Positions 253 through 51,061 of a stretch of 52,401 bases of DNA are shown piece by piece. The position numbers were made by a program, and so were the translations under genes. The notes under the pieces are model-generated. The model saw only the letters and a program-made list of their open reading frames with translations, had not been told where the DNA came from and made no database searches. How positions within the stretch are numbered: the stretch's first letter is position 1; each line of letters begins with the position of its first letter. This DNA is from a virus (lineage: Duplodnaviria; Caudoviricetes): IMG/VR virus record IMGVR_UViG_3300044990_000705, positions 1-52,401 of that record; one strand, 5' to 3'.

Positions 253-275
253 CTATGTTCAAAAAATAAACATAG
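253..275. repeat. 23-bp palindromic motif, copy 1
   Basis: ctatgttcaaaaaataaacatag. Confidence 0.9.
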
Positions 276-563
276 CTGGCCTCCAAACCACTGGTCTCCA
301 GCTATCACCTATACCGACATCAAAAGTTATCGTAACTAAAGTTAAAATAAAAAATCTATATCCAAACCATCTGCAATGTCACAAATATGCTCGAAGAATC
401 CTAAAGTGTGTTGAATCGCTAATAAATCCAAAAAGTCACAAGTCCAATGACTAATCTCCCGGCCAGTAATGTCTGATAACATCAAAAAATGCAAAAGTGT
501 CATAACTGCCTCCATTCACAGCATCGCTGTGTGTCGGCATAAGTGATAACTGGAAATCACCAA

Positions 564-594
564 AGCCACTGACCCTCATGTGAGCACTCCAATT
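564..594. repeat. Inverted repeat arm pairing with 1201-1231
   Basis: 26/31 complementary to 1201-1231; inner extension 602-614 with 1183-1194. Confidence 0.8.
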
Positions 595-624
595 GAAGTG
601 CCCTGTTAGTGTTAATCGCTATCG

Positions 625-1101
625 CTAATCATCATCTCCATCTAAAACATCTGCCATCGTTACTGTGGGCTGCAAAATGGGCTGTGCCAATGTTGGCTGT
701 GGTGTCTGGGCTGTCTGAACTGGGCGCTTAACCTGTGGTGGTGCCATTACTGGATCTCCCACATGTTCCATTGCCCAGCTGATGAACTGATCTCTGCGAT
801 CTGGGGTCATCCTCAAAAAAACTGTCTCAACGCTAACTGTGGTGCGCTTACCTGCTGGAGCATACAAACTCTTCACGTTAACTCGCTGAATGCCAACTCC
901 TAATCTCAAAAAGTCATCCCTGTTGAGGCTCCTGCAGTGCGCTTGCCATGTCACCCTTGGACTCTGACCTCCACTGAGCAGGGTCATCATCTCCTGCATG
1001 TCATAACCTGTGAAATCAAACTCCACCTGTGCGGTCACTGTTGCAACCGTCACGCCATTAGCTATCTGGGAAATCCTGATCTGTTGAACCGGTGCTATCA
1101 T
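625..1101 (-). CDS. Hypothetical early protein (158 aa)
   Basis: ORF 625-1152; ATG at 1101 preceded by GGAGG; acidic C-terminal tail. Confidence 0.7.
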   Translation of the reverse strand: MIAPVQQIRISQIANGVTVATVTAQVEFDFTGYDMQEMMTLLSGGQSPRVTWQAHCRSLNRDDFLRLGVGIQRVNVKSLYAPAGKRTTVSVETVFLRMTPDRRDQFISWAMEHVGDPVMAPPQVKRPVQTAQTPQPTLAQPILQPTVTMADVLDGDDD

Positions 1102-1200
1102 GTGATACCTCCATTGTGTGAAAATGTACGTTAAAGTGGCTGTCCGAATCAACTAAACCCGGCCGCCCTATCTATAACCCTCTAACACCGCAGGTGTCGA

Positions 1201-1231
1201 AGTTGAAGTGCTCACATGAAGACCAGTGGCT
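1201..1231. repeat. Inverted repeat arm pairing with 564-594
   Basis: agttgaagtgctcacatgaagaccagtggct. Confidence 0.8.
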
Positions 1232-1509
1232 AACACTGGCAACCATCTAATGGACGAAGTCCATGCTGGCTCCCAATGACCCGCTTCGGGATTCCCGCCT
1301 GCCAACCATAAGCTGGTTGCTGGGAGTGCTGAATGTCAAAGATCTCGTTGCTGGCCACTGAGTGTGTCTAATGTATCCAATGGCCCTTATGCTGATTGAA
1401 AAATCTGATGCACGCAATCATAGTGTGGTTCGAAACATACTATGACCAGTTTAGTTTTTTAGACATAGTATGACTCGAAGCCTACTATGCCTTCCTTCCA
1501 CTTGCCACC

Positions 1510-1537
1510 ATCATACACTGTTGGTGGCTATTGTCAA
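1510..1537 (-). promoter_or_regulatory. Putative sigma70-type promoter (leftward)
   Basis: TTGACA-16 nt-TATGAT on the minus strand. Confidence 0.55.
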
Positions 1538-1647
1538 GGCCCTTGCCCTGACCACTTTGTTTGTCGCTTTCGTTAAATACATAATACATGATCCCAGTGG
1601 TTTGTCAACTTTCACATTCCCATGGCTGGAGTGATTTGCCATGTGAA

Positions 1648-1670
1648 CTATGTTCAAAAAATGAACATAG
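1648..1670. repeat. 23-bp palindromic motif, copy 2
   Basis: ctatgttcaaaaaatgaacatag (perfect 9-bp arms). Confidence 0.9.
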
Positions 1671-2425
1671 CCACAACCAATCTCATGAAAATCCAAAGGG
1701 GGATGATCCTCCCTTCGGTCGGACAATAGCATTGAGTAGGAAATATATAAGATTTTGAATACCCACAAATATGTGTAATTAACGTGGTGCACGCCTTCAT
1801 ACCACATTTGGCAACCCATACAATCCAACACACCATGCGCCCAGCGCATTGTGGTGGTCATTTGGCGGCCATTAATGGCCATTTCCAACAACAAATACCA
1901 CCACCCCGACCAACCCGCCAACAACACTAACCAATCGAACGTAGTGAGGAATGGCCAGATAGCGACTCTGGTAGCGGTAGCGGCACTATGCTGAAAGCGG
2001 CATTTGTGTTGGCCTTTTGTTAGGTGAGTTAACGTGGTGATGATGGTGGATGGGTGGTGGTTGGTTGGTGTGATTCATCATGGTGTGGTGGTTGCGTGTT
2101 GTGGTGGGCATTGTGGGGCGTTTGAACGGCATTTCCGCCCATAATCACATCCCGCCAACCACATTGCCCCGACCGTAGGGAGTGTATGTTAATCTAAATG
2201 TAGTGAGGAATTTGCCCCGAGCGTAGCGAGTTAGATAGGGATAGCGACAGCGATAGCGGCTAAGATCGCAATAGCCGCTATGTGGCGACCAAAGGGAGCA
2301 AAACAAACCAGATTTAAACTATGGTGATAACAACTGTATCGCGCAACCAGTAATTTTGCGCGATTAAGGTGACTTGGCGGAAAATTTCTGCGCAACCAAA
2401 GGTTGCAATTGTGGGAAATAATGGG

Positions 2426-2454
2426 TTGACATCTTGGTAAAAATGTTGTAATGT
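2426..2454 (+). promoter_or_regulatory. Putative sigma70-type promoter for the structural arm
   Basis: TTGACA-17 nt-TAATGT, 36 nt upstream of ORF 2491. Confidence 0.6.
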
Positions 2455-2490
2455 GGTTTTAAAATCTTCACACCAAAAAGGCAACTTTGC

Positions 2491-3039
2491 ATGGCTACAC
2501 TAACAAAAGAACAATCTGAGCGTTACACTATGCCATATCGCAGTGACCAACGATTCGGTCCTGTGCTCAGCAAGAAGAATTGGCAAGTAGGCCAACTATG
2601 GGACTTGCATCATGAAGTGATTCGGATGTTGTTGCTGGGAATGAAGCAAACTGACATCGCAGCAAAACTCAACATCACCGATTGCCAAGTCTCGAAGATC
2701 AAAAACTCCCAAGTCGTCCAAGATCGCTTATCGCTGATGCGTGCATCTCGTGATGTTCAAACTATTGACATCTCAAGGGATATTCTGGAAGTTGCACCTC
2801 GTGCCCTAAAACTATTGAAAAATATCGTTGAAAATGAGGGAGAAGGTCGTCAAGCAACTATTGGATTGCGTAGCAAGGTGGCTGAGAGCTTGCTCGACAG
2901 GGCGGGATTTGGGGCAGTGAAGAAATTGCAAAGTGAAAATGTGCATACCTTTTATGATGCTAATGAAATTGAGCGCATAAAGCAAAGGGCTATGCTCGCC
3001 AGCGGCGAGGTGGAAGAGGCCATAGTGGTGAATGGCTAA
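2491..3039 (+). CDS. HTH protein, probable terminase small subunit
   Basis: HTH-like GMKQTDIAAKLNITDCQVSKI plus AESLLDRAG motif typical of TerS-like proteins; first gene of the structural arm. Confidence 0.55.
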   Translation: MATLTKEQSERYTMPYRSDQRFGPVLSKKNWQVGQLWDLHHEVIRMLLLGMKQTDIAAKLNITDCQVSKIKNSQVVQDRLSLMRASRDVQTIDISRDILEVAPRALKLLKNIVENEGEGRQATIGLRSKVAESLLDRAGFGAVKKLQSENVHTFYDANEIERIKQRAMLASGEVEEAIVVNG

Positions 3040-3041: not shown

Positions 3042-3064
3042 CTATGTTCAAAAATTAAACAAAG
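3042..3064. repeat. 23-bp palindromic motif, copy 3
   Basis: ctatgttcaaaaattaaacaaag, between a stop codon and an RBS. Confidence 0.9.
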
Positions 3065-7139: not shown

Positions 7140-7162
7140 CTATGTTCAAAAATTAAACAAAG
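7140..7162. repeat. 23-bp palindromic motif, copy 4
   Basis: ctatgttcaaaaattaaacaaag. Confidence 0.9.
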
Positions 7163-11185: not shown

Positions 11186-11208
11186 CTATGTTCAAAAATT
11201 AAACATAG
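11186..11208. repeat. 23-bp palindromic motif, copy 5
   Basis: ctatgttcaaaaattaaacatag. Confidence 0.9.
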
Positions 11209-13394: not shown

Positions 13395-13417
13395 CTATGT
13401 TTAAAAATTGAACATAG
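13395..13417. repeat. 23-bp palindromic motif, copy 6
   Basis: ctatgtttaaaaattgaacatag (flanks extend to taa...tta). Confidence 0.9.
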
Positions 13418-17225: not shown

Positions 17226-17456
17226 ATGATAGCTATGAACATCCTTGCGGTGATTACTGCACTTCCAGGCTTAGTGAAATTGATAAGAGAATTGATGCAG
17301 CAATTGCAGGAGCAGCTAGGCCCAGGAACGGGAGTGGAGAAGAAGAAAGTGGTTCTTGATGTGGTAGCTGGAGTTGTTGGAGATGAGGGAGTTTGGGAAA
17401 GTGTAAAAGGGATTTTCTCTTGGATCATTGATTGTATTGCTATGTTCAAAAAATGA
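17226..17456 (+). CDS. Holin-like small protein
   Basis: AAGGAG RBS; hydrophobic N-terminus and GxEKK motif. Confidence 0.5.
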   Translation: MIAMNILAVITALPGLVKLIRELMQQLQEQLGPGTGVEKKKVVLDVVAGVVGDEGVWESVKGIFSWIIDCIAMFKK

Positions 17457-17462
17457 ACAAAG
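17440..17462. repeat. 23-bp palindromic motif, copy 7
   Basis: ctatgttcaaaaaatgaacaaag, overlapping the last codons of ORF 17226. Confidence 0.9.
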
Positions 17463-21817: not shown

Positions 21818-21840
21818 CTATGTTTAAAAAATGAACAAAG
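21818..21840. repeat. 23-bp palindromic motif, copy 8
   Basis: ctatgtttaaaaaatgaacaaag, directly after TAA and merging into AAAGGAG. Confidence 0.9.
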
Positions 21841-24951: not shown

Positions 24952-24992
24952 GTGACAGATGCTGTGGTGGTCTGTCACTATGTTCAATTTTT
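24952..24992 (+). terminator. Putative intrinsic terminator after the capsid gene
   Basis: gtgacaga/tctgtcac 8-bp stem followed by T-rich sequence. Confidence 0.5.
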
Positions 24993-25000
24993 AAACAGAG
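24978..25000. repeat. 23-bp palindromic motif, copy 9
   Basis: ctatgttcaatttttaaacagag. Confidence 0.88.
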
Positions 25001-28987: not shown

Positions 28988-29010
28988 CTTTGTTTAAAAA
29001 ATGAACATAG
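28988..29010. repeat. 23-bp palindromic motif, copy 10
   Basis: ctttgtttaaaaaatgaacatag. Confidence 0.9.
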
Positions 29011-30344: not shown

Positions 30345-33300
30345 ATGGCACTTGGAGCAAAGATTCAATTAGATGGTAGCAAGAATTCTCTTGGACCTAA
30401 AATCCAACTTGATGAGGTTGGAAGTGGAGCTCCAAGTTTCATAGATCAAGTTGCTAATGCAGGTTTAGGTGCAGTGGATGCAATTGGGAGTTTGGCAGGC
30501 CAAGCAGTTTCATTCCCAGCAAGCTTGGCGTATGAAGCAGCAGGGCATTTAACTGGGCAAGGGAAAGATGTTGCAAAGCAGTGGGGACAGATACCAGGTT
30601 ATTACACACAGCCAGGGATGATTACTGGTGCGGTTAGATCACTTGCGGGGTTGCCAAGTATTCCACAAGAACAGACTATGGCGGCGAAGTATAGTGAGCC
30701 AATAGCTAAGGCATTTGAGACACTTATTCCATCACAGCAGATTGAAGAAGGTCTTGGTAGGGCAAAGGAACTTGGGGCACCAGAGAAGGTGACTGATGCA
30801 CTTGCTTTTGGTGCTTCGAAGTTCATTGAGTTGATGGCATTTGGAGGTTATCATAAGATAGCAACAGGGGCTATAGGAAAGATCAAAGGGAAGTTAAAGG
30901 AGTATCAGAAAGCACCTACCCCACAAGCACAAGCACAGGCCCAAGGTGATTTGCTTGGAGAGTTGGAAGGAGTTCTTGGAAAACTCAATGAGAAAGGTGT
31001 GGACATTACGGAGTTGAAAGCAACAATTCCAACAATAGCAGACACTCCCATAGCAAGTGAGATGGCAGCCAGAAATGCCCAGACAGCACAAAGGACTAAT
31101 GCTGAGAGCCAGCAGTTTATGCAATCAAGATCAGCACTACAGCAGGCATTAGAGGCTAATGTTCCAAAACCAGAGCCACCAGCCATCATAGAGCCAAAGC
31201 AAACTGGGTTGACCCCGCAAGAGACATTGGAAGCAGCTAAAGTTAATAAGAACCTGACAGGTGATCCACAGATAGTTTCACCTGATGAGTTCAAGACTTT
31301 AGTAGATCAGCAAGCCAAAGTTCCAACACAAGAGAATGTCAGCGCTAAGCTTGAAGCTATGAGAGCAGAAGCAAAAGCGAGGATAGCAGCTGAGCAGAAC
31401 AGGCCGGCAGCAGGTGCAGAAATACCAGTTAGATTGCAACAAGAGGCAGAGAGGACAAATCAGATAGCAAGGGAAGCAGTTAGCAGGCAGAGATCACTTC
31501 AGCAGATGTTGCAGAAAGGAGTGCCGAAAGAAGAGGTTAAGGCTTATCAGCCATCGCCAGCGAAGGTTGAGCCGATAGTTGAGACTGTAAAACAGGCTGA
31601 GGTAAAAGCTGAGCCGCAAAAACCAGTGGTTACTGAAGAACTTTCACCAGCTGTTAGTGAGCAATTGCTAGTTGAGCCAGCTAAAGTTGAGCCACTTAAA
31701 CCAGAACCTGTTGTTGAGAGCAAAGTGGTGAATGAGCCAACCTCTGTTCAAAAAATGAACATAGTTGAAGAGCCAAAACTAGCAAAGAAACCACGTGAAG
31801 TTGTTTTAATTGAAAGAGAAAAACCAGTTTACCATAAATCATCTAATCTTGAATCACTTGAAAATGGATTTCAGAAAAGAGATCTTGGAATTTCATTCTC
31901 CAAAACGCCGGAAACAACATATAGTTCACCAAGAAAACAAGAACCAATTGGGACTATTGGCCAAGTTGAGGCAACATTAAAAGGAAAAGGGCTTAACTAT
32001 CTGAGAAAATCTCATAAGGATTTGATTGAGAATCTTTATGAAGAAGCAACAAAGCAAGATGGACCTTATGATCCATATGTTATTAGCAAACTTCGTGAAA
32101 TGGGAGTTGACTTTGTAGAAAATTTTAATGGCTATGGCAAATCAAGAGAGGGAGAAGTTCATGTTTTAAATCCAGATGCTGTTAAGATAAATAAAACTAC
32201 AAAATTATCTGACTCACTTGATCCAAAAGAAAGAGCAAGGGTTAGTAGGTCTGGACTTTCACAAGATAGTCTTATAACAAAGTTTGAAACAAACAAAGAA
32301 GCAAAGCAGTCTTATGAACTCAACAAGAGACAATTTGCTACAGTAGATGAAGCTAAGACATTCTTTGATACCATACCACAAGAGATTAGGAATGAGTTCT
32401 CACCAGAGATTTTAAAGGTTGGAAAGAAGTATAGGATCGGCACAAAGATCTTGACTGAGATGCCAGAAGAGGAGATAGTAGCTAAGATCAAAGACACAGT
32501 TAAAGAGCTTGAAGATATGGAGCAAGGTAGAGATGTTCCCATGCCGAAGATGGCTGAGCAAATGACAGGTGATCAGGTTTACAAGGCCGTGACAGATATG
32601 ATCCCAGACATCCAAGCAGCACTACAGAATGGCACTAATGTGGAAGTGGTGCACCAGAAACTGGCAAACCTTGGAGATCATGCAGCTACATCACTGGAGT
32701 TTGAGTTGCTTGATAAGATTGAAAGTATGTTGCCGCAGTTGTGGAAGAAGAAAATGGAGATAGATAGTGTGCTTGAAAAGCAATTCTCAGATGCACATAA
32801 AGCAGACATGAAGAGTGCCAAGACAACTGCGGGTGGGAAGGAGATAAAGGTAGATGCAAGTGGATATAATGGAGTTAGTGTTAAGGATATTAAGAACACA
32901 GCAACAGCCATCAACAAGATTGTGGGAAATATAGGAGCAGTTGGTACTGAGGTAGGTGGTGGGAAGCAGAGTAGGTTGAGCTTGTTGAATCAGGCTGAGA
33001 TAGATTCCATTAGAAGGGTTAAAGAAGCAGCACAGAAAGCAGGGAAAGAAGTAGGAGAGTTCTTACTTGAGCTTGGTATGACAAGAGATAACGCACAGAA
33101 GATAGTGGAGACCATTGGTGAGATGGGAGAGGAGAAGGTAGGTAGGAAGGAATTGAGATCTACACCAGAGCAAGTTCAGAGAGTTACTGATGGACTTGAA
33201 AGTGAGATGGATAAGATCAGGAATCCCATTAAGAAGTATTATCAAGAGATGTATGATAAGAGGCAGATGGTTGATACTTATCGACCAGGAGATGGGAATT

Positions 33301-35235: not shown

Positions 35236-35276
35236 TGAACACAGTTAGTTTGTGATGATAACTGTGTTCATTTTTT
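35236..35276 (+). terminator. Intrinsic terminator at the convergence of the two arms
   Basis: 12-bp stem tgaacacagtta/taactgtgttca followed by T6. Confidence 0.7.
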
Positions 35277-35284
35277 AAACATAG
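35262..35284. repeat. 23-bp palindromic motif, copy 12
   Basis: ctgtgttcattttttaaacatag. Confidence 0.85.
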
Positions 35285-36549: not shown

Positions 36550-36572
36550 CTATGTTCATTTTTTAAACAGAG
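36550..36572. repeat. 23-bp palindromic motif, copy 13
   Basis: ctatgttcattttttaaacagag, abutting the stop codon of ORF 36573. Confidence 0.88.
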
Positions 36573-42048: not shown

Positions 42049-42057
42049 TTCATCGCC

Positions 42058-42080
42058 CTTTGTTTAAAAATTGAACATAG
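42058..42080. repeat. 23-bp palindromic motif, copy 14
   Basis: ctttgtttaaaaattgaacatag. Confidence 0.9.
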
Positions 42081-42227: not shown

Positions 42228-42331
42228 CTTAATTTCCTTTCGTCAAAGAAGTTTTTTATTATCACTAATAGTTCTTCAAATAATATTCCAAGTATAAGAC
42301 CAGCCACAAAAAACACAGTTTTAACAAGCAT
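42224..42331 (-). CDS. 35-aa membrane peptide (not in ORF track)
   Basis: MLVKTVFFVAGLILGILFEELLVIIKNFFDERKLR; GGAGG RBS; overlaps both neighbours. Confidence 0.5.
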   Translation of the reverse strand: MLVKTVFFVAGLILGILFEELLVIIKNFFDERKLR

Positions 42332-43652
42332 CTTGGCCTCCTCCAAAGTATTTTTCACACTTCAATACATATGAGTTACGATATTCTTCAGTCAGGTCAT
42401 AGCCAATAGGCATCATTTTGTTCAAAGCAGCAGCGATTAGAGTATTACCAGACCCAGCAAAAGGGACGAGAACCTTGGAGCCCTCAAATGCGAAAGTGGT
42501 TATTACTTCTGAAATCATTTCAAGTGGTCGTTCAGTAGGGTGCATTTTATTGCCTGGTGAAACAGGAGGGAATTGGAATATGTTAGAGCGGCCTTCTTTA
42601 GCCAGCACAGGTGAGCCTTTTGAAGCATAAAAGAACATTTCATAAGAGTTAGCAAGAATGCGACTTGGTTGCATAGTCTGGCCACCAGGCTTAGCCCAGA
42701 TGCAAGGTATGCGGCGGAGAGTAAAGCCAGCAGCAACCAGCCACTCATAGATATCATTGAACCAAGGCTCAGGGCCAAACCAGCAGAGGAGCCAGCTATT
42801 GTCAGCCATAACACGATAGCATTCGATAAATAGCTCACGCATCAGCTGTTCATACAAAGGAGCTGGGATTTCATTATAAGTTTCATTGCCAAAATTAGTA
42901 GCCATGCCAGATTTTTGGCTCTTCAGGTTGATGGCATAGGGTGGGTCGATTTCAACAAGGTTAAAGTGGCCATTTGGTAGTTGCTTTATGCCATCGAGAC
43001 AATTGCAGATTTGGTAAGAGGAGCAGATTTTATTCAGAAAGAGATTTTTGCTGCCCATCGCCGCTTCAGCACGCTTTGCAAGCTCGGCTCGGATGTAAGT
43101 TTCTTCAATCTTTCCCTTCAACTTCATTGCATCACTTTTAGTTTTGCACTTATTCCATTCAAGTTGAGGGAACTGGGCTACAGTTTCAGCCAATTTGATA
43201 TCTTGCGACAGGCTTGCAGGGCTAACACCAAGCACAGAAGCAATGTCACGCATAGATACTCCGCTAGCATCAGGGGCAGTGGAAGTCTTTTCACCATGGA
43301 TAGCCTTTTGGATTTCAAGTAGGTCCCGTTTAGCTTGACATTCTTCAAGGAAAGTAAAATCCTTGCGTTTGATGTTCTCCTCGATTTCAATAGACCTGAG
43401 TTCGAGCTCAGTTAGCTCTTTGTCATACACTCTGCAAGGGATCTCGGTATGGCCAAGGAAGCCACAAGCAGTGTAACGGCGTCCACCAGCCACGAGTTTG
43501 TACTTACCATCAGGCATAGTTGTGACAGTTATGGGATTTATGAGTTCTTTTTGCTTAATTGAGAGCGCCAAGTCCTCTATGTCACCATAATCTTCACGCT
43601 TTCGCTCGCCAAAAACTATATTCTTAATTGGAATATTTAAAAGTTGCATCAC
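42321..43652 (-). CDS. ParB/Srx + HTH + beta-class N4C/N6A DNA methyltransferase fusion
   Basis: LALSIK..LINPI.V..LVAGGRRYTA and EIEENIKRKD (ParB); SMRDIASVLGVSPASLSQ (HTH); DPPY, HPTERP, PFAGSG (MTase). Confidence 0.9.
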   Translation of the reverse strand: MMQLLNIPIKNIVFGERKREDYGDIEDLALSIKQKELINPITVTTMPDGKYKLVAGGRRYTACGFLGHTEIPCRVYDKELTELELRSIEIEENIKRKDFTFLEECQAKRDLLEIQKAIHGEKTSTAPDASGVSMRDIASVLGVSPASLSQDIKLAETVAQFPQLEWNKCKTKSDAMKLKGKIEETYIRAELAKRAEAAMGSKNLFLNKICSSYQICNCLDGIKQLPNGHFNLVEIDPPYAINLKSQKSGMATNFGNETYNEIPAPLYEQLMRELFIECYRVMADNSWLLCWFGPEPWFNDIYEWLVAAGFTLRRIPCIWAKPGGQTMQPSRILANSYEMFFYASKGSPVLAKEGRSNIFQFPPVSPGNKMHPTERPLEMISEVITTFAFEGSKVLVPFAGSGNTLIAAALNKMMPIGYDLTEEYRNSYVLKCEKYFGGGQDAC

Positions 43653-43873: not shown

Positions 43874-43875
43874 AG

Positions 43876-44130
43876 CTAATTCCCATGAGGTTCACGATTT
43901 TCACGTGGTTTTAGGTTGAGTTTGCAGATTTCATTAAGTGATAGCACACGAGTGGTGAAAGCTCCAATTACTTCTCCAGGCCCAAAGCGGTCACACATAG
44001 CTATCAGGTCATCTACGATAAGGCCAAAGACCATTTTCTTCATCCCATGCTGAATCATTATGCGATTTAGTTTGTTATGCTGGTCTTCAGTTAGGTCAAT
44101 TGAAAGTCGAGGTGAATATTCAGCTGCCAT
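43876..44130 (-). CDS. Hypothetical protein, possibly ribbon-helix-helix DNA binding
   Basis: PRLSIDLTEDQHNKL N-terminus; ATG 44130 with GGAG. Confidence 0.5.
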   Translation of the reverse strand: MAAEYSPRLSIDLTEDQHNKLNRIMIQHGMKKMVFGLIVDDLIAMCDRFGPGEVIGAFTTRVLSLNEICKLNLKPRENREPHGN

Positions 44131-44185
44131 TGCATTGTCTCCAAATGGTGATAGGTGAGATGGCCACGATAGTAACCATCCCACC

Positions 44186-44208
44186 CTTTGTTTAAAAATT
44201 GAACATAG
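44186..44208. repeat. 23-bp palindromic motif, copy 15
   Basis: ctttgtttaaaaattgaacatag, abutting a stop codon. Confidence 0.9.
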
Positions 44209-44601: not shown

Positions 44602-44626
44602 TTTTAGGTCCTTTCATTTAGATGAT

Positions 44627-45457
44627 TTAGATTATTGTTTTGTCTTCATGGTTGATTTTGGCTTTCTTTAAGATCGCTTTAATGTTGGCTTCTTCATACT
44701 GCGACAGCAGACCATCCTTTGCCAACCGAGAACGGGCAACATAGGTGCCAGTTGATTGAGTGAGGATTCGGTAGTCAACTCCTTTCGAGCCACTTTTTGG
44801 GCTCATTACCCAGATCTCGTCAAAGAGAAGAGGGATAGTTTGTACACCTTTGCCTGTGGTAGCGTAGCGATAGGATACGCCGCCAGTTACTTCATCCTTG
44901 TAGCTTTCCAGGTGGCCAGTTAGGATGAAATCACAGGGAAGTGAGAGTAGCTCACGTAGCCAGTTACGGATTTCAATCTTTTGTGGGTTATAGTCATGGG
45001 TGAAGCGGGGAGCAGCACCGGCCAGGCCAGCACGCTTCAAGATTTCGTTCATGATAGATTCAGCCCAAGTAGTGCTGCTATCGAGGCAATAAGTGCCAAG
45101 CATTTCAAAATAGCCAAGTTGCTCACGCTTAGCCATTTCTTTCTTCCAAAGCTCGAAAGCAAAGGGTTTTTTAGGATCTTCATTGCCATAGCGAGAATCG
45201 ACAATCACTTCACCCTTTTTAATATACTCATCAAGGCCCTTAGCACCACCAGGGTCGAAAGAGTCAATGTGGACAGGCTTGCGAGCAGTTCTCATCAGGA
45301 AGGTCTTTCCACTGCCGCTTTCACCAAGCAATAGACAATTGAAGCTATGGTTGCTCTTATCCTCGGCGTACATTGACTGAAGTTTAGCAACCTCCGCTTT
45401 TATTTTCAGCATCTTTTCATCGTTCATTTTCATTTTCCACTTTAGGATTGAGGCCAA
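44627..45457 (-). CDS. AAA_24/Sak4-like ATPase (recombination)
   Basis: LLLGESGSGKT, LDS, ILTGH, FDEI; true start probably 45427 or 45433. Confidence 0.75.
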   Translation of the reverse strand: MASILKWKMKMNDEKMLKIKAEVAKLQSMYAEDKSNHSFNCLLLGESGSGKTFLMRTARKPVHIDSFDPGGAKGLDEYIKKGEVIVDSRYGNEDPKKPFAFELWKKEMAKREQLGYFEMLGTYCLDSSTTWAESIMNEILKRAGLAGAAPRFTHDYNPQKIEIRNWLRELLSLPCDFILTGHLESYKDEVTGGVSYRYATTGKGVQTIPLLFDEIWVMSPKSGSKGVDYRILTQSTGTYVARSRLAKDGLLSQYEEANIKAILKKAKINHEDKTII

Positions 45458-45610
45458 GAAAATTGGCTATTGTTTTGTAGATTATTTTAAGTTCATCTTT
45501 TGTGTATGAGCAAGAGAACTTCTGGCCATTCTTTCTTATCAAAACCAGATCAAAAAGTTCTTCTCCGCTACGATTGTGAGTGTAGTGAAAGTCTTGGATT
45601 ATGTAGGCTT

Positions 45611-45787
45611 TTATCTTCTTGCCTCCAGTTCTTCCAGTTCTTCCATGCGCACAAGTAATTCAAGAATCCTTCCTTCAAGCTGACTACAATAATTATTCAT
45701 CGCAGTGATTTCTTTGTTTCTATTCTCAATTTCTTCAACAAAATCACCTAAGACATCTATGTTGTAGGTATTTAAAGTAGGTCTCAT
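45611..45787 (-). CDS. 58-aa coiled-coil peptide (not in ORF track)
   Basis: MRPTLNTYNIDVLGDFVEEIENRNKE...; AAAGGA RBS formed by motif copy 16. Confidence 0.5.
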   Translation of the reverse strand: MRPTLNTYNIDVLGDFVEEIENRNKEITAMNNYCSQLEGRILELLVRMEELEELEARR

Positions 45788-45796
45788 TGTTGTTTC

Positions 45797-45819
45797 CTTT
45801 GTTTAAAAATTGAACATAG
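45797..45819. repeat. 23-bp palindromic motif, copy 16
   Basis: ctttgtttaaaaattgaacatag, abutting a stop codon. Confidence 0.9.
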
Positions 45820-46782
45820 TTATATCGCAATAGTTTTCTTGGCTTCTTTTGCCAAAGGATCCCAAAATTCCTTCACAAATCCCATAGGAACATCCCCACA
45901 CCTATTCAGCGGATTAGGCCAAGCAATGCAGAAAGGATGAAAGATACAAAGTTTGCCGTAATCAAGGCAAGCAGAAGAATTAATAGGGAAGTAGCCGAGA
46001 ACTTCGCCATCAAGAGCATCAGGCCCATTAGCCATTGAAGTATGATACTTAATTTCTTCAAAAATCCAGTTAATACGTGAGAGCCAAACTTGCATTTGGT
46101 CTTTGGATTTTGCGATAGGCTCACGAATGAATTCCCAAGGGAGTTTGTTCTTAGTTCTGCCAGTTGCATTTATATCCTTCCAGCTATTTTTAGCTTTAGA
46201 AATAAAAAGACCATTCATAGTTATGCAGTCAACTTCGTTTTGACCAAAGAGACAATTTAGTGCGTGGGTGTAAGTGCCAACTTGCACACTCAACAACCAT
46301 TGCTCAGCCCACAAGTAGGTGCTGGATGCAGTTTTATGTTCAAGGGAGAACACTTTTCCACTTTTGCGATCCCTAAGGATTGAATCCATCCGTAGGGCGA
46401 TAGAGTCAACTCCATTAATAGCCACAGTGCCAGCTATTTCGGTGTAGAGGACATCAAAGTTTTCGAGATCACGTTTGTAGTTGTTAGCATAAGCATTCAA
46501 AATGTGAAAGAAATTTTGGGGAGTTTTGGGTTCGAAGATTTCATCTTGGCTTTCACTAAAAGTTTTGCGATATTCAGCCAGGAATAGATCAAAGGCACCC
46601 ATGATGCTGTTGTTGTCATAGCCATTCAGCAGCAGATGCTCAAGAGCCACATGGACAGCAGAGCCAAAAACAAGGTGATTTGAAATTGTCTCACTTTGCC
46701 AGCCAAGATAATGGCGATACATGTAATAGCGAGGGCATTTTAGAAAGTCATTTATTTTGCTTGAGTCAAGAACAAGTTCCAC
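45820..46782 (-). CDS. PD-(D/E)xK Cas4/RecB-like exonuclease
   Basis: S.I..F..CPR, FGSAVH..LE, RMD..LEHKT, three C-terminal Cys (Fe-S staple). Confidence 0.85.
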   Translation of the reverse strand: MELVLDSSKINDFLKCPRYYMYRHYLGWQSETISNHLVFGSAVHVALEHLLLNGYDNNSIMGAFDLFLAEYRKTFSESQDEIFEPKTPQNFFHILNAYANNYKRDLENFDVLYTEIAGTVAINGVDSIALRMDSILRDRKSGKVFSLEHKTASSTYLWAEQWLLSVQVGTYTHALNCLFGQNEVDCITMNGLFISKAKNSWKDINATGRTKNKLPWEFIREPIAKSKDQMQVWLSRINWIFEEIKYHTSMANGPDALDGEVLGYFPINSSACLDYGKLCIFHPFCIAWPNPLNRCGDVPMGFVKEFWDPLAKEAKKTIAI

Positions 46783-46796
46783 TTTGTTTTCTCCAT

Positions 46797-47090
46797 TTAA
46801 AGGATTATTACTCGTTCAATATATTCTTTGTTTTTAGCGTTCCACAATAGCAGATTGAGGCGTTTGTGCAGGTTAGCAAAATAGGCACAAGCAATGGAGT
46901 TCATAATAGCCAGGCCACTTAGCAGCAGATAATCACCAGGCTCAGATAGGTCAAGGGATTCTCCAAACTTGCGATACATAGCCACGCAGTCGAAGCGATT
47001 TAGGTTACCCTTTGACATGAAAACCAGAGAGCCAAACTTTTCAGCAGAGCTGTAGTCATGGCAACTTTTGTTTACTATATAAACGTTCAT
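46797..47090 (-). CDS. Hypothetical protein
   Basis: 97 aa ORF in the operon. Confidence 0.6.
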   Translation of the reverse strand: MNVYIVNKSCHDYSSAEKFGSLVFMSKGNLNRFDCVAMYRKFGESLDLSEPGDYLLLSGLAIMNSIACAYFANLHKRLNLLLWNAKNKEYIERVIIL

Positions 47091-47092
47091 AG

Positions 47093-47287
47093 TTATTCAT
47101 CCTTGTCGATGAAATAATACTGGTGACTTGCTCTACAGGCAAGAATGATTTTGTTATCTTCAATATGACAGAAAGGACATCGGTCAGAGCAGGGGCGTTG
47201 CTTTTCAGGGCAAGTCATAGTCATGCCATTGCGAATTAGGACTTGCTCACTCTGGCCTTCATTCAGCACATATTCACGAAGTTTCAT
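47093..47287 (-). CDS. Cys-rich hypothetical protein
   Basis: CP....C...CPFC pattern. Confidence 0.55.
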   Translation of the reverse strand: MKLREYVLNEGQSEQVLIRNGMTMTCPEKQRPCSDRCPFCHIEDNKIILACRASHQYYFIDKDE

Positions 47288-47290
47288 TAG

Positions 47291-47500
47291 TTATATCTCC
47301 ATTATTTTGTATTTAACTGCTTCATTCACAGCATTAAGGAGAGACTTATTTGAATCAAAAGACATTCCGCCGACCAGGATGTGATAGTAGTCAACATACT
47401 TCACATCAAGCATTGGACGGATGGCACTACATTCAGATATATCAATGTAAGCGCCAGGGAAGACTTTTTCAAGTTTGTCAAGAGCTTCTTTTCTTGTCAT
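47291..47500 (-). CDS. Hypothetical protein
   Basis: 69 aa, AGGAGG RBS. Confidence 0.6.
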   Translation of the reverse strand: MTRKEALDKLEKVFPGAYIDISECSAIRPMLDVKYVDYYHILVGGMSFDSNKSLLNAVNEAVKYKIMEI

Positions 47501-47509
47501 TTTAGCCTC

Positions 47510-47532
47510 CTATGTTTAATTTTTGAACATAG
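47510..47532. repeat. 23-bp palindromic motif, copy 17
   Basis: ctatgtttaatttttgaacatag. Confidence 0.9.
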
Positions 47533-47535
47533 TTA

Positions 47536-48390
47536 TTAGACAACTTCCACAAAAACTGGAAACCGAGGGACTTGTTTGCCAGGAGTTAGATGCTGGTATT
47601 TAACACGTAGTTTACGACCAACAAGTGATTCTTTTTCAAGCCAAAGTTGGGCAGATATTTCATCTGTCAGGCCAGAGCCACAAGAGAATATGTTACCAGT
47701 TTCACCTTTGCAAACAAGAGCACCGATTGTTTCCTTGCCATAGCCATTTTTATCAGTTTCTTCTTTCCAACTCACGATTTCATAGATATCTTCCTTTGCA
47801 GGTTTGAACTTCATTAACAATTGAGATCGAGATCGCTGGTACATGTTTTCACAGTGGCGCAAGATAATCCCCTCATATCCCATAGCCATATAGCGATCCA
47901 GCATACTCATAGCTTCAGTTAGTGATGAAATTAGAGCAAAAGGGACACGAACGATAGGCCAGATAAAGTAAAGATTGTTAAGAGCAACAAGCCGCTCCAT
48001 TTGATTTTTAGACTCATCAATCAGATCAAAAACGTGGTACTCGATTTCACCAATGTTAGCGTGAGTTGTTATGCGACTGCTTGCACACCGAGAATGGATT
48101 TCCTCAAAGCTCAAGCCATGTGCATAGAGTTCTCCATCAAGCTCAATTCCGGGGTTGTATAGGTGGAAATCATTTAGAGCTTTTTGGATGTGAGGTATTT
48201 GACGAAAAATAGCCTCACTGGATGATAGCATGACAGGCCAAGGGAGTTTAGTTCCCTCAACAATATCCACTGACCTACAACGCTCACCATCGAGTTTTGG
48301 TTGACAGATGTAAGGAGGTTGCCACTTTGCAAGTTTGCGTTCATCCAAAGGATTGCAGAGCATTATACCAGATCTTTTTGCGAGTTGCAC
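47536..48390 (-). CDS. ATP-dependent DNA ligase
   Basis: KLDGER, LDGELY, YHVFD, EGIILR, LMKFK, CGSG, PRFP. Confidence 0.93.
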   Translation of the reverse strand: MQLAKRSGIMLCNPLDERKLAKWQPPYICQPKLDGERCRSVDIVEGTKLPWPVMLSSSEAIFRQIPHIQKALNDFHLYNPGIELDGELYAHGLSFEEIHSRCASSRITTHANIGEIEYHVFDLIDESKNQMERLVALNNLYFIWPIVRVPFALISSLTEAMSMLDRYMAMGYEGIILRHCENMYQRSRSQLLMKFKPAKEDIYEIVSWKEETDKNGYGKETIGALVCKGETGNIFSCGSGLTDEISAQLWLEKESLVGRKLRVKYQHLTPGKQVPRFPVFVEVV

Positions 48391-48432
48391 TTTAGATCTC
48401 CCTCATTTTTGTACTTTTGTCCATAATGAAAA

Positions 48433-48488
48433 CCCACTTAGAGTTGTTTCAATAAGCACATTTGGTTATTGTTTGCTCTCTAAGTGGG
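48433..48488 (-). terminator. Long intergenic hairpin (terminator or processing site)
   Basis: cccacttagag/ctctaagtggg 11-bp stem plus inner caataa/ttattg; T4 follows on the minus strand. Confidence 0.5.
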
Positions 48489-48506
48489 CTTAGTTGGTGA
48501 TAGCGA

Positions 48507-48839
48507 TTACATACTTGCTTGCAATGCTTCCAGATAGGCCAGGCGTTCTTCCTGAGTCATTTTGCCAAACTTTGCTTTGGCCTGAGCGAGGACATCAACC
48601 GCAGATCGCTGCAACTGGATACCAGGCTTCCAGATTTCAGCCAATTCCAGCACATTTCCGCCCTTTTCCAATCTTGTGCGCATCAGGGCCTGCAAGGAGA
48701 TTTTGGCACTTTGGACGAAGTTGCTGAAAACCACTTCTCCACCAAACTTGTTAATTGCATCATCCAGATTGTCGCCAAAGTCATACTGGATTGTCGCTTC
48801 GAGATCGCCCTTTTTAGCTGCTACGTCAATATTAGCCAT
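48507..48839 (-). CDS. Hypothetical protein
   Basis: MANIDVAAKK start with AAAGGA; has its own promoter and downstream hairpin. Confidence 0.7.
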   Translation of the reverse strand: MANIDVAAKKGDLEATIQYDFGDNLDDAINKFGGEVVFSNFVQSAKISLQALMRTRLEKGGNVLELAEIWKPGIQLQRSAVDVLAQAKAKFGKMTQEERLAYLEALQASM

Positions 48840-48913
48840 TTTTTCAGATCCTTTCAATTTACAGATTGTTGCCGTTATTGGCATTTGATGGGTAATTCCC
48901 ATTGATGAAACAC

Positions 48914-48942
48914 ACATTAACATCATTTAATGGCCATGTCAA
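48914..48942 (-). promoter_or_regulatory. Putative sigma70-type promoter
   Basis: TTGACA-17 nt-TAATGT (same hexamers as the promoter at 2426). Confidence 0.65.
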
Positions 48943-49068
48943 CAATTATTTTCATTAATGATTTCAATGGTTTATGACCAAAAAATCACATATTTGTTTG
49001 GCATATATATTGCATACATCCTATGGCCACCAACTAAACATAGCAATTCGAGATAGGGTGATGAACTG

Positions 49069-49091
49069 CTATGTTTAATTTTTGAACATAG
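49069..49091. repeat. 23-bp palindromic motif, copy 18
   Basis: ctatgtttaatttttgaacatag. Confidence 0.9.
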
Positions 49092-49096
49092 GTGGG

Positions 49097-49432
49097 TTAT
49101 TTTATGACTTCAAAAGGGACGTTGATGAAAGGCGTATAGATTTTATCTTTGTAAAATGTAATAGCCCCAATTCCATCAATGTAGAATGTTTTCTTTCCAT
49201 CATAAGAATAATTGAAGTCCCAACAATTAGAGTGCCAACAGATAGAGCACTGGCCCTCAGAGTCTTCATTTTCATCATTCAAAGGATAAGGGAGAAAACT
49301 AGGTTTGAAAGTTATGTTGTATTGTGGATAAGTAGGATGTTGAGCATAGAGGTTTTTAGTGTAAGCATCAGCATTTGCAGATAATAAGCAAACACCAGCC
49401 ACAGCCATGATAGAGCGTTTTAAATAGTTCAT
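49097..49432 (-). CDS. Hypothetical exported protein
   Basis: Signal-peptide-like N-terminus (KRSIMAVAGVCLLSANADA). Confidence 0.6.
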   Translation of the reverse strand: MNYLKRSIMAVAGVCLLSANADAYTKNLYAQHPTYPQYNITFKPSFLPYPLNDENEDSEGQCSICWHSNCWDFNYSYDGKKTFYIDGIGAITFYKDKIYTPFINVPFEVIK

Positions 49433-49592
49433 TCTTTGTTCCTTTCATTTAATTGATTTAGATATTCAGTTAGAGATGCTATTGTAGTTTCAATTTCCTC
49501 TTTTATTTGACTCAGAGTTGTAGCATCATCAACTCCACAAGAGAAGATCTCACATTCATCCAGCAGAGATAGTTTAAGGGATTTTATCATCA

Positions 49593-49835
49593 TCAGGTTT
49601 CCACAACAAATACTTTTAAGTTATCTTTGGCTAAAACTCTTGTTATGTTAGTTCCATTTATTTTGGCCTCACAATTTACAGTTACAACTGGGATCATCTT
49701 GTCACCTGCAAGAGATTGTATGGTTACTTGCAGGCCACCAGTTATTCCTTTTGCCCTAAATGTGAGCACCCGCTCTTGGCCATCGACAGAGATGATAGCT
49801 TGGAAATTAGAGTAGTCTGGTTTTTTCTTACTCAT
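49593..49835 (-). CDS. Hypothetical protein
   Basis: 80 aa ORF. Confidence 0.6.
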   Translation of the reverse strand: MSKKKPDYSNFQAIISVDGQERVLTFRAKGITGGLQVTIQSLAGDKMIPVVTVNCEAKINGTNITRVLAKDNLKVFVVET

Positions 49836-49847
49836 TTTTTACCTTTT

Positions 49848-49877
49848 ATCCACTCACACTGTGAAATGTGAGTGGAT
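49848..49877. other. Intergenic perfect hairpin
   Basis: atccactcaca/tgtgagtggat 11-bp stem, 8-nt loop. Confidence 0.6.
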
Positions 49878-49891
49878 TTGGTTAGATTATT

Positions 49892-50125
49892 TCACGCTTG
49901 TAGTTTGTTCTTGCCATCATTGTGAGAGTTGACGAAGTTACCTCTGTGAAAGAAATCAGAAGGTAGGTCGAAGAGCTTTTTGCTCTGCTTTGTGCAGAAG
50001 TAGCAATTATCTTCTTCATACATAGGATAGGTGAACATGAACTTGCCAGTTTGCACACTAGGTGCACTTTTATCAGCGACAAGTTGGCGAGGGTAAGTTC
50101 CGCATTTTTTACAAAGTCTGGTCAT
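49892..50125 (-). CDS. Zn-finger-like hypothetical protein
   Basis: CKKC...CYFC; AGGAG RBS. Confidence 0.6.
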   Translation of the reverse strand: MTRLCKKCGTYPRQLVADKSAPSVQTGKFMFTYPMYEEDNCYFCTKQSKKLFDLPSDFFHRGNFVNSHNDGKNKLQA

Positions 50126-50291
50126 TTTTAGCTCCTTTTGAGGTTGTGAGGGTTGCTATTTGCTCTTTTGTCCAAACCACTGGCTTGCCATTCCTTTGAT
50201 ATCGGTAAGGGCTTGCTATTTTTAGTGGTTTGCGATATAGAGGACACTTTGCCAAGATGTCTTTTTTCTCTAATTGCCAGCAAATTTGCAC
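50109..50291 (-). CDS. Hypothetical protein
   Basis: GTG 50291 preceded by GGAGG. Confidence 0.5.
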   Translation of the reverse strand: MQICWQLEKKDILAKCPLYRKPLKIASPYRYQRNGKPVVWTKEQIATLTTSKGAKNDQTL

Positions 50292-50310
50292 TTCCGGATC
50301 CTCCCTTTGG

Positions 50311-50487
50311 TTAATCTTCCAGTGATTCATCCCATAGTTGATTTACTTCATCTATCATGTCGATTAATTCATTGCGCAAGTAGGTTAAAGTGTCATAAAT
50401 ATCCTCATAATCAGTATCCAGGCAAAGGTTACTTACCAAGCCAGCGAGTTTGTTTTCATACTCTTCTGCCAACTTTCTTGCGTTCAT
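50311..50487 (-). CDS. 58-aa acidic helical peptide (not in ORF track)
   Basis: MNARKLAEEYENKLAGLVSNLCLDTDYEDIYDTLTYLRNELIDMIDEVNQLWDESLED; AAAGGAG RBS. Confidence 0.65.
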   Translation of the reverse strand: MNARKLAEEYENKLAGLVSNLCLDTDYEDIYDTLTYLRNELIDMIDEVNQLWDESLED

Positions 50488-50498
50488 TTAATGATCTC

Positions 50499-50521
50499 CT
50501 TTGTTTAATTATTGAACATAG
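50499..50521. repeat. 23-bp palindromic motif, copy 19
   Basis: ctttgtttaattattgaacatag. Confidence 0.88.
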
Positions 50522-50896
50522 TTATGAGTGCCTAATAGCATCTCTTGAAATCCTCAAGTTTTGGCAGCTTGAGGATTTGGGGAGATGTTATGAGAACAAA
50601 ATGCACAGCGCTATTGATGTGAGAATGATTGCGCTTGTTATGAGCTCGTTTTTAAGTTCTCGCCAGAATATCTGGCCGACATAGTAATCAGCGCCGAGTT
50701 GGTTTTGCACACAAGGTGCGTGGTAATCAGTTAAGAGCATAGTTAAATCCTTTCAAGGATATCAATTAGTTCTACTTGTGACATATCTATATTGCGCTCG
50801 GATAAAGCAGTAGTAACTGCTATTATAACAGACTTGCTATCATCTGAAATGCAAGGGATTGTTATCACAGAGCCATCAGATAACTGTATTCCAATA

Positions 50897-51028
50897 TCAA
50901 AGTTCATAATTATCCTCTACATGCCATTCAGGATTTTCAAGCAAATTATCAAGAACCATCTCCCAATATTCCACACTATCATGCAGCGGAATCTCGAGCT
51001 CTTCTTCACACCATTGTTTTAGAGTCAT
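50897..51028 (-). CDS. 43-aa acidic peptide (not in ORF track)
   Basis: MTLKQWCEEELEIPLHDSVEYWEMVLDNLLENPEWHVEDNYEL; AAAGGAGG RBS. Confidence 0.6.
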   Translation of the reverse strand: MTLKQWCEEELEIPLHDSVEYWEMVLDNLLENPEWHVEDNYEL

Positions 51029-51038
51029 GTTTGGCCTC

Positions 51039-51061
51039 CTTTGTTTAAAAAATGAACAGAG
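51039..51061. repeat. 23-bp palindromic motif, copy 20
   Basis: ctttgtttaaaaaatgaacagag. Confidence 0.88.

Follow-up and report, generated by a model that had tools for sequence, protein, structure and literature searches.

A short palindrome repeated around the genome of the element that carries it is familiar from RK2, which has 12 OB sites for the protein KorB. KorB dimerises through a C-terminal domain and carries no enzyme domain; its partners are ParA (IncC) and KorA, and it represses promoters. It is described as loading at OB as a clamp closed by cytidine triphosphate (CTP), sliding, and acting at a distance (PMC11790492). KorB on OB is the closest working analogue of the system examined here, in which a 23-bp palindrome with the pattern CTWTGTTYA-W5-TRAACAWAG is repeated around the genome of a phage, IMG/VR virus record IMGVR_UViG_3300044990_000705. 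The window, meaning the whole stretch of DNA analysed, is the entire record of 52,401 bp. The candidate reader of the palindrome is a protein of the same phage, referred to below as ParB-methyltransferase for its fusion of ParB_N and N6_N4 methyltransferase domains; KorB is among both its sequence matches and its fold matches. Unlike KorB, this protein carries a methyltransferase, has GGRR in place of GERR, and belongs to a lytic-looking phage in which no ParA was found, and its presumed sites lie at stop/start junctions, not close to promoters.

Chromosomal ParB/parS and Noc/NBS systems provide a second comparison. Their domain order, a nucleoside triphosphate (NTP)-binding domain followed by a helix-turn-helix, is shared with the window protein, and the outer TGTT...AACA of the window site is like that of parS. 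Changes in the first residues of the recognition helix shift the specificity of ParB and of Noc. The window site spans 23 bp with a 5-bp A/T spacer, whereas parS is a contiguous 16-bp palindrome; the window sites are spread genome-wide, whereas those of ParB and Noc are clustered near the origin. Unlike ParB and Noc, the window system has no segregation partner and has a methyltransferase fused to the reader.

Dispersed palindromes are also described from actinophages. Cluster O has a 17-bp repeat, TGTTCGGNNNCCGAACA (PMC4351075), and Cluster EG an 18-bp repeat, GATCAACCNNGGTTGATC (PMC7302621); both are dispersed and of unknown function, and the two papers, in the parts available to us, propose a dimeric DNA-binding protein and identify none. 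As in the window, many copies occur genome-wide, mostly in short intergenic gaps and off promoters. Cluster O further shares a TGTTC-N7-GAACA frame with the window site, and its phages encode proteins with ParB-like domains. The repeats of both clusters are shorter and richer in G+C than the window palindrome, and about one third of the Cluster O copies are intragenic, unlike those of the window. The available text for the two clusters reports no protein partner, no co-variation among lineages and no even spacing, whereas a candidate partner and both of the other features can be described for the window.

The candidate reader belongs to a class that has been surveyed. Fusions of a ParB CTPase fold to an N6_N4 methyltransferase, the same domain fusion as in the window protein, are enriched in phages and prophages, their role is unknown, and the available text names no DNA target for them (PMC12704722). 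Other ParB-like proteins of mobile elements include plasmid HerB (PMC13370423) and proteins that activate phage thymine dioxygenases (PMC13229309). Our literature search found no paper that links ParB-methyltransferase fusions to dispersed sites; supplements, which lay outside the search, might list binding data. M.SsoII is reportedly a methyltransferase with a regulatory helix-turn-helix that binds a separate palindrome. Unlike the window protein, M.SsoII has a single site, located in its own promoter, and no ParB domain.

We consider it rather more probable than otherwise that the palindromes are double-stranded DNA sites of ParB-methyltransferase, the predicted ParB/Noc/KorB-like reader that the phage itself encodes. 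Judged by computation alone, the window would hold a system of the ParB/parS type with an enzymatic payload and a genome-wide array of sites. The sites are real, resemble double-stranded DNA sites, are specific to a clade of phages, are evenly spaced, and co-vary with one residue of a helix-turn-helix. To the array described in the original prediction, this analysis adds a specific candidate reader and a putative code between site and protein that can be tested.

A search of the whole window with the palindrome pattern returns exactly the 20 copies of the original prediction (20/20), 15 of them without mismatch and five with one (Table 1), while 100 dinucleotide-preserving shuffles gave a mean and a maximum of 0 matches. 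A looser form of the pattern matches 20 times forward and 20 times in reverse, and the pattern read backwards matches 0 times in each direction. Positions 9-15 are A or T in 20/20 copies, which bears out the described A/T-only centre. The largest gap between copies is 5508 bp, in keeping with the limit of about 5.5 kb given earlier, and the near-equal gaps that had been pointed out (1395/1394 bp and 4098/4046/4045/4010 bp) are real.

It had been suggested that regularity of spacing be measured against random placement, and the copies prove to be spaced more evenly than by chance. When 20 of the 72 gene junctions are chosen at random, the probability of a maximum gap no larger than that observed is 0.001, and of a coefficient of variation no larger than that observed, 0.0001; for uniform placement the two values are 0.010 and 0.001. 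Among the complete relatives, sites are evenly spaced in G005 (P = 0.004 and 0.0004) and in G004 (0.036 and 0.018), marginally so in G001, and not evenly in G003. The proposed genome-wide coverage thus holds for the window and for two of four complete relatives, with a third marginal and the fourth not. The even spacing, together with the single copy placed in frame inside the 4.9-kb gene, the longest, at 31742, supports a function that needs the whole genome to be covered.

Most copies had been described as squeezed between a TAA stop and the next ribosome-binding site. Read along the sense strand, 13/20 copies have a TAA that ends 0-4 nt before them, and at about 10/20 the 3' AAAG or ATAG continues into a ribosome-binding site of the GGAG or GG type. 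Three copies, at 253, 1648 and 35262, lie away from transcribed cistron junctions. The strong TTGACA promoter-like sites are free of all 20 copies, as had been stated, and in two cases a minus-strand -35 box follows 26-39 bp downstream of a copy (the box at 36523 after the copy at 36550, and the box at 1608 after the copy at 1648).

Comparison with other phages bears on whether the element acts as DNA or as RNA. The exact motif is present in 79 IMG/VR stretches, most of which are about 65-70% identical to the window at the nucleotide level, in the terminase, portal and capsid genes only. The window and these stretches yield 189 non-redundant copies, of which 137 could be oriented by flanking open reading frames (ORFs). 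At mirror positions 8/16 of the oriented copies the combinations CG, CA, TG and TA occur 83, 30, 16 and 6 times, the counts expected if the half-sites vary independently. At positions 3/21 the commonest combination is A/A (73/137), a mismatch in any hairpin. Centre positions 11-13 hold A or T without strand preference (79/58, 68/68 and 58/79). The sole asymmetry of the site is A at position 21, which gives the 3' end AAAG that runs into GGAG. When the 20 window copies are folded as RNA, 8/20 sense strands have no structure (0 kcal/mol), and the mean energy is -2.7 kcal/mol for the sense and -3.95 kcal/mol for the antisense, so that the sense strand folds worse. With independent half-sites, an unbiased centre and poor sense folding, the element shows the behaviour of a double-stranded DNA site that has two-fold symmetry and an A/T spacer free of contacts. 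The original prediction had argued for such a site of a dimeric protein from non-compensatory mismatches between the arms, and the 137 oriented copies agree with it on both points.

The placement of the copies could suggest instead an intercistronic mRNA hairpin with a role in the processing, stability or translational coupling of the adjacent genes. The upstream stop, TAA in 83/104 cases, ends 0-3 nt before the motif in 62/104, and the next start codon follows 6-14 nt after it in 79/124. Arm changes between lineages preserve complementarity, and in sense orientation an ATG at positions 3-5 and a TGA or TAA at positions 15-17 make a four-codon mini-frame. Within lineages, however, there is no co-variation of paired bases, the C-A mismatches outnumber the U-G wobbles (30 against 16 in the counts above), and the loop has no strand bias. 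The stem is near-invariant while the conserved genes are only about 65% identical, which suggests a sequence-specific reader and not structure alone, and the three copies outside transcribed cistron junctions would have no place in such a scheme. Weak sense folding without base-pair co-variation is not the signature of an intrinsic terminator or of a repetitive extragenic palindromic (REP)-like hairpin either, whose stems are stable and rich in G+C, with a U-tract in the case of terminators. We regard the mRNA hairpin as very improbable. The start-proximal placement also recalls the start-associated sequences of Cluster K phages, which are conserved, lie at a fixed short distance before start codons and take in the ribosome-binding site. 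The window motif, however, is palindromic, and it is not limited to positions before a start: single copies lie within a gene and where the two arms meet, and the ORF-poor left end has the motif as well.

An ordinary operator had been discounted in the original prediction, and two observations agree. No copy overlaps a sigma-70-like promoter, and contigs from three RNA libraries, which can neither show transcript starts or ends nor prove transcription, and which we interpret only where they give coverage, pass through the copies at 44186, 45797 and 50499.

Relatives were collected through ParB-methyltransferase, taking the best 80 of 371 matches in each of three scans. Among named phages the nearest is Desulfofustis phage LS06-2018-MD01, with about 40% amino acid identity in terminase and polymerase; it has nine copies of a variant palindrome, CTATGTCCCAAATTGGGACATAG. 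Many lineages retain the 23-bp layout CT-W-TG-NNN-A, W5 and mirror image, in which the inner bases 6-8 are specific to the lineage (TTC, GTA, GGG, GTG, GAA, GTT, TCC, TAA, TTA and others). More distant relatives have other palindromes, such as GATCGTTTAAT-N-ATTAAACGATC or TAATTAA-N5-TTAATTA. The nearest relative of the window retains 17/20 sites at the homologous place. ParB-methyltransferase is encoded in 4/4 motif-bearing records that are at least 90% complete (a fifth record is a 53% fragment), which carry 16, 7, 9 and 12 copies where reversed-pattern controls give 0. It is found in 20 of the first 79 motif-bearing stretches, where it is the commonest non-structural gene.

The motif was also sought in bacteria and archaea, using one genome for each of 185,579 species. 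The scan found 26 matching stretches, each with a single copy and none related to the phage of the window; 0/26 were multi-copy. The search of host genomes suggested with the original prediction therefore gave no bacterial stretch with more than one copy, and the match to a host regulator box that could have overturned that prediction did not appear. From these 26 single, unrelated matches, one of them with a weak protein similarity, no host can be named. Because the site changes between related phages and the genomes scanned hold no regulon of it, the reader of the palindrome must be phage-encoded.

The same results bear on the possibility that the sites serve a host protein, such as a nucleoid-associated protein of the Fis type, or act as promoters for a phage-modified or phage-encoded RNA polymerase. 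The Fis consensus is GNNYAWWWWWTRNNC, and the central 15 bp of the window site, GTTCAAAAAATGAAC, fit it; the CCCA and GGGA variants no longer do, and a conserved host protein would not tolerate inner bases that differ between closely related phages. The polymerase version could appeal to T7-type promoters, which are also 23-bp intergenic repeats. The window element, unlike those, is two-fold symmetric, RNA-library contigs read through it, and the highly expressed gene g48507 has a TTGACA-17-TAATGT promoter of its own. No RNA polymerase, sigma factor, integrase or repressor occurs among the proteins scanned, which include the 1626-residue protein of the plus arm and leave some small ORFs outside. 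A host protein or a polymerase is, in our judgement, the least probable reader among the explanations considered here.

ParB-methyltransferase is the sole protein with a ParB-type helix-turn-helix in the genome. Pfam recognises ParB_N (1.3e-11) and N6_N4_Mtase, and the candidate has the motifs GGRR and ENxxR in the former and DPPY and FAGSG in the latter. In an alignment of 13 sequences G55, G56, R57, R58, E88, E91, N92 and R95 are invariant, and two N-terminal arginines are among the aligned features. Profiles of the N-terminal part match solved structures of Noc, Spo0J and ParB (3e-14 to 1e-16) and KorB, and profiles of the C-terminal part match N4-cytosine methyltransferase, CcrM and DpnA. 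An AlphaFold2 model of residues 1-215 has a mean predicted local distance difference test (pLDDT) score of 87.4 and a predicted template modelling (pTM) score of 0.75. Its helix-turn-helix has one helix at 133-140 and another, the recognition helix, at 144-159, which residue 144 opens. Foldseek aligned 165-228 columns of this model with Noc (4e-11), ParB on parS (6t1f, 1e-8) and DNA-bound KorB (8qa9, 7e-9). These profile and fold matches indicate that the candidate holds both the NTP-binding domain and the DNA-binding domain of the ParB type.

The C-terminal dimerisation domain of ParB is absent, its place being taken by the methyltransferase that forms the C-terminal half. A two-copy model has a symmetric interface in the methyltransferase domain (residues 293-357 and 385), with an interaction prediction score from aligned errors (ipSAE) of 0.78 against 0.00 for the best control; the ipSAE mark applied is reached by 20/30 proteins solved as pairs and by 1/23 solved as single chains. 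Contact agreement between runs is at least 80%, and the partner pLDDT is at least 76. Dimers of related methyltransferases are already solved, and the pass may come from the model's memory of them, a likeness rather than evidence.

This protein and the palindrome also co-vary, across a large clade of related phages. We used 62 lineages with a typed site and a tree built without the helix-turn-helix columns. Where base 6 of the site is G, residue 144 is His or Arg in 16/16 lineages. Where it is T, His or Arg occurs in 3/41, and where it is A, in 0/5, three of which have Gln, so that His or Arg accompanies every base-6 G and only 3/46 of the others. Usual contacts are His or Arg with guanine, Gln with adenine and an aliphatic side chain with the methyl group of thymine, and the pattern fits this chemistry. 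The residue 144 column has the strongest raw association of the 433 columns of ParB-methyltransferase, each taken with its most favourable residue set, and the best net pair score of 40 columns tested, with 4.9 pairs in the same direction and 0 opposite. When about 2857 columns from ten conserved neighbouring families are ranked together, it comes first, at 0.87.

Several observations weigh against ParB-methyltransferase as the reader. The runner-up columns are close, at 0.77 in g48507 and 0.75 in a small 84-residue protein encoded upstream. Only 7-8 independent pairs differ at base 6. Residue 144 follows the base in about five of them, goes against it in 0 and stays the same in 2-4, which by a sign test (p = 0.0625) falls short of significance. 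There are three exceptions with His144 and T, in lineages with TGTAAA, TGTCCA and a mixture of TGTTAA and TGGTAA. A simple scan for specificity positions, comparing variation within and between classes in the 10 families, missed the helix-turn-helix. The recognition helix of the TTC class is very variable (SPASLSQ, SIGGISM, SKGSLSG, SPAGVTQ and others), which is unexpected because it would read an unchanged TGTTCA. A second link, between Asp150 and T4-G5, was set aside as a single clade split (pairs: one same, 0 opposite, four unchanged). Of 141 distinct relatives of ParB-methyltransferase, 79 have no typable site family in the DNA examined. Finally, Box II reads GGRR and not the canonical GERR in every sequence examined. 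The glutamate of GERR is needed for CTP hydrolysis, and clamp cycling may be different or absent with GGRR. Some of the ParB-fold fusions surveyed elsewhere, in the text available, bind ATP or GTP, or gave no signal (PMC12704722).

The runner-up columns draw attention to another phage-encoded dimeric DNA-binding protein, acting as a genome-wide regulator of transcription or a roadblock to elongation in the manner of stoperators, with the 84-residue protein and g48507 as candidates. The stoperators of Cluster A mycobacteriophages resemble the window array in being tens of protein sites in short intergenic gaps, with a specificity that diversifies among relatives. They are asymmetric sites of 13-14 bp whose orientation follows transcription, and the protein on them is a monomeric immunity repressor encoded by temperate phages. 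The window site has two-fold symmetry, and the scanned proteins include no repressor or integrase. Sites at cistron boundaries in both arms would suit such a regulator. In the Desulfofustis phage 3/9 variant copies (245, 2247 and 42973) stand 5-6 nt from a TATAAT hexamer, and some copies there may overlap promoters; no such pattern was seen in the window.

The gene g48507, conserved in 14 motif-bearing stretches, has its own strong promoter and terminator. No gene is more deeply covered in the three RNA-library contig sets (14-30, compared with about 1-2 elsewhere). Its AlphaFold2 model (pLDDT 80), a beta-hairpin with helices, finds no match in PDB at E <= 0.001 and shows no recognisable DNA-binding fold. 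The 84-residue protein, encoded upstream of ParB-methyltransferase with one small gene between, has no Pfam match; we take its PRLSIDLTEEQ segment to be ribbon-helix-helix-like. The gene order is retained in the Desulfofustis phage (its 9872-10105). A relative with a very different outer motif, GATAATTAA, has the beta-strand RFAFE and not RLSID; on the other side, the strand is identical in GGGGA and GGTAA lineages and so does not track the variable bases. This protein could recognise the outer CTATG, which is conserved, or it could be a partner, possibly a co-factor in the manner of KorA. The strongest association remains that of the helix-turn-helix column of ParB-methyltransferase, and RNA-library contigs pass through three copies. 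Another phage protein as the reader is in our view unlikely, if a serious alternative.

If ParB-methyltransferase is the reader, the mechanism could run as follows. A dimer held through the methyltransferase domains would place one recognition helix in the major groove at TGTTCA and the other in that at TGAACA, with 11 bp between the two centres and the A/T-only centre of the site as an easily deformed spacer without protein contacts. The sites would be loading points, by analogy with ParB on parS and KorB on OB: nucleotide binding would close the N-terminal domains into a clamp that departs from the site and slides along the DNA. Binding itself, the NTP-dependent loading and sliding, and the target of methylation we infer from those analogues; nucleotide hydrolysis may differ where GGRR replaces GERR. 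With about 20 evenly spaced sites, the fused methyltransferase, or the clamp, would reach all of the phage chromosome but no other DNA. Intergenic placement would follow from the poor fit of a fixed 23-mer to coding sequence, and the sense-strand change of T21 to A would make the AAAGGAG ribosome-binding site and weaken any mRNA hairpin. The payload might be methylation in cis, a KorB-like effect on transcription, or both. The specific version in which a nucleotide-gated ParB clamp serves as a vehicle for a methyltransferase, loading at about 20 sites, sliding, and methylating its own chromosome in cis, we put forward tentatively, as a possibility that is more doubtful than not.

Were this so, the phage would mark itself and leave host DNA unmarked, the specificities of site and helix-turn-helix would diversify among lake phages like immunity groups, and during co-infection each phage's enzyme would serve its own genome only. 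The dispersed palindromes of Cluster O and Cluster EG actinophages might share the explanation. ParB/parS biology would extend from segregation and silencing to targeted DNA modification, and the lineages would form a natural collection of orthogonal protein-site pairs, with a rule that predicts which phages have a common specificity. ParB-methyltransferase fusions, an orphan class among the commonest phage architectures with a ParB fold according to the accessible text (PMC12704722), gain a candidate target. The decade-old puzzle of phage-wide palindromes in several clusters, as presented in the available parts of the reports, gains a candidate reader (PMC4351075, PMC7302621). The window links the two through a pairing that can be tested, of one helix-turn-helix residue with one site base.

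Exchange of cassettes was considered as well, with the palindromes as recombination linkers at module borders, used between co-infecting phages by the Sak4-like annealing protein and the exonuclease. At 5/20 sites (7140, 11186, 17440, 35262 and 49069) the motif is kept and homology to the nearest relative is one-sided, and four alignment ends lie within 3 bp of a motif edge. Public RNA-library contigs (runs X20 and X21) join the flanks of different copies through the motif, with loose ends at 44189, 44213, 49092 and 35286; the joined flanks belong to the copies at 21818, 24978, 13395 and 11186, sometimes on the opposite strand. These chimeric contigs are single and of low depth, and may be recombinants or palindrome artefacts of the libraries. 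Mosaic borders occur at gene junctions anyway, and an excess at motif junctions was not demonstrated; they may simply follow from module borders that share 23 identical bases. Linkers leave the palindromic shape, the A/T centre, the even spacing and the lineage-specific inner bases all unexplained, and a change of inner bases would hinder exchange between lineages. We judge this role scarcely probable, marginally less so even than the hairpin.

The position of the candidate gene relative to the sites gave little. A site lies 300-1200 bp upstream of the ParB-methyltransferase cassette in about 34/60 typed relatives and at most 35 bp downstream in about 20/60; this is a modest excess over the junction background, and flanking by sites was not used as evidence. 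All copies and the three genes discussed are collected in Table 1.

Table 1. Palindrome copies in the window and the genes considered as encoding their reader.
Feature	Position	Strand	Description
Copy 1	253..275		ORF-poor left region; 0 mismatches
Copy 2	1648..1670		perfect 9-bp arms; 39 bp upstream of minus-strand TTGACA box at 1608
Copy 3	3042..3064		between small-terminase-like gene and 1244-aa tail fibre gene
Copy 4	7140..7162		right edge is the end of homology to nearest relative
Copy 5	11186..11208		homology to nearest relative starts again at left edge
Copy 6	13395..13417		immediately 3' of TAA stop
Copy 7	17440..17462		precedes 215-aa gene upstream of large terminase
Copy 8	21818..21840		order TAA-motif-GAG
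Copy 9	24978..25000		3' of major capsid gene
Copy 10	28988..29010		pattern match
Copy 11	31742..31764		in frame within 1626-aa gene; divides a would-be 6.3-kb gap
Copy 12	35262..35284		junction of the two convergent arms
Copy 13	36550..36572		26 bp upstream of minus-strand TTGACA-17-TATTTT promoter-like site
Copy 14	42058..42080		downstream border of ParB-methyltransferase cassette
Copy 15	44186..44208		upstream border of ParB-methyltransferase cassette; 548 bp before ParB-methyltransferase start
Copy 16	45797..45819		pattern match
Copy 17	47510..47532		pattern match
Copy 18	49069..49091		one-sided homology to nearest relative
Copy 19	50499..50521		pattern match
Copy 20	51039..51061		pattern match
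Candidate reader (ParB-methyltransferase)	42321..43649	-	442 aa; ParB_N 7-94; helix-turn-helix 133-140 and 144-159; N6_N4 methyltransferase 230-425
84-aa protein	43876..44130	-	N-terminal PRLSIDLTEEQ; upstream of ParB-methyltransferase gene, one small gene between
g48507	48507..48839	-	110 aa; own promoter; 11-bp-stem terminator 48488-48433

The window represents a complete phage genome with terminal repeats. Its first and last bases, about 46 at each end (52356-52401 on the right), are identical, as a terminal repeat or an assembly overlap. The plus arm (2491-35225) contains the structural genes: a small-terminase homologue, three tail-fibre or tail-spike genes, the large terminase, a portal and an adaptor of the SU10 type, the major capsid protein, and a 1626-residue protein without a family. 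The minus arm (35482-52182) contains the replication genes, encoding a helicase-like ATPase, a primase, ThyX, a Sak4-like ATPase, a PD-(D/E)XK exonuclease and a DNA ligase in addition to ParB-methyltransferase. No tRNA genes or Rfam families were found in the window, and no close relative turned up when named phage records were searched at the DNA level. In no third of the genome are sigma-70-like promoters or intrinsic terminators more numerous than in shuffles. A strong TTGACA-17-TAATGT promoter-like site lies at 2426-2454, ahead of the first plus-arm gene, and the same combination recurs at 48942-48914 on the minus strand, ahead of g48507; it is an unusual pair, common to the first gene of the structural arm and to g48507.

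The left end of the window has further peculiarities. Region 1-2490 is poor in ORFs, has a higher G+C content (0.45) and negative GC skew, and contains small minus-strand ORFs at 342-503, 625-1101 and 1511-1696, with no Rfam match. Two sigma-70-like promoters with 11 of 12 matching positions lie on its minus strand at 1608 and 1537, and a C-rich tract at about 1860-1930 is opposite a GGTGG-rich tract at about 2040-2110. Isolated half-sites of the palindrome occur at 32-40 (TGAACATAG) and 162-170 (CTATGTTCA), on either side of a stretch very rich in A/T (47-130) and facing outwards. They resemble the two halves of a palindrome into which an insert has come, and the region that holds them (1-170) may be an origin or packaging region.

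In the window the small-terminase homologue (2491-3039) is 15 kb from the large terminase (18124-19593), with tail-fibre genes between; in the Desulfofustis phage the small and large terminase genes are adjacent. The family A DNA polymerase (38441-40831, minus strand) has a domain of the uracil-DNA-glycosylase superfamily at residues 2-120, N-terminal of its 3'-5' exonuclease domain. The 1626-residue protein (30345-35225) was considered as a virion RNA polymerase and rejected, with no Pfam or PHROG family and no supporting Atlas cluster. Its nearest Atlas clusters are unnamed or have the large-polyvalent-protein domains LPD38, LPD3 and ART-PolyVal, with scores of about 0.88-0.93, and it is probably an injected polyvalent protein or an internal virion protein.

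DNA near-identical to positions 42001-52000 is present in many metagenomes from lake water and freshwater, which come from several studies; at least half of the sampled words occur in 16 of the 24 runs listed. The phage is therefore widespread in lake-water and freshwater habitats.

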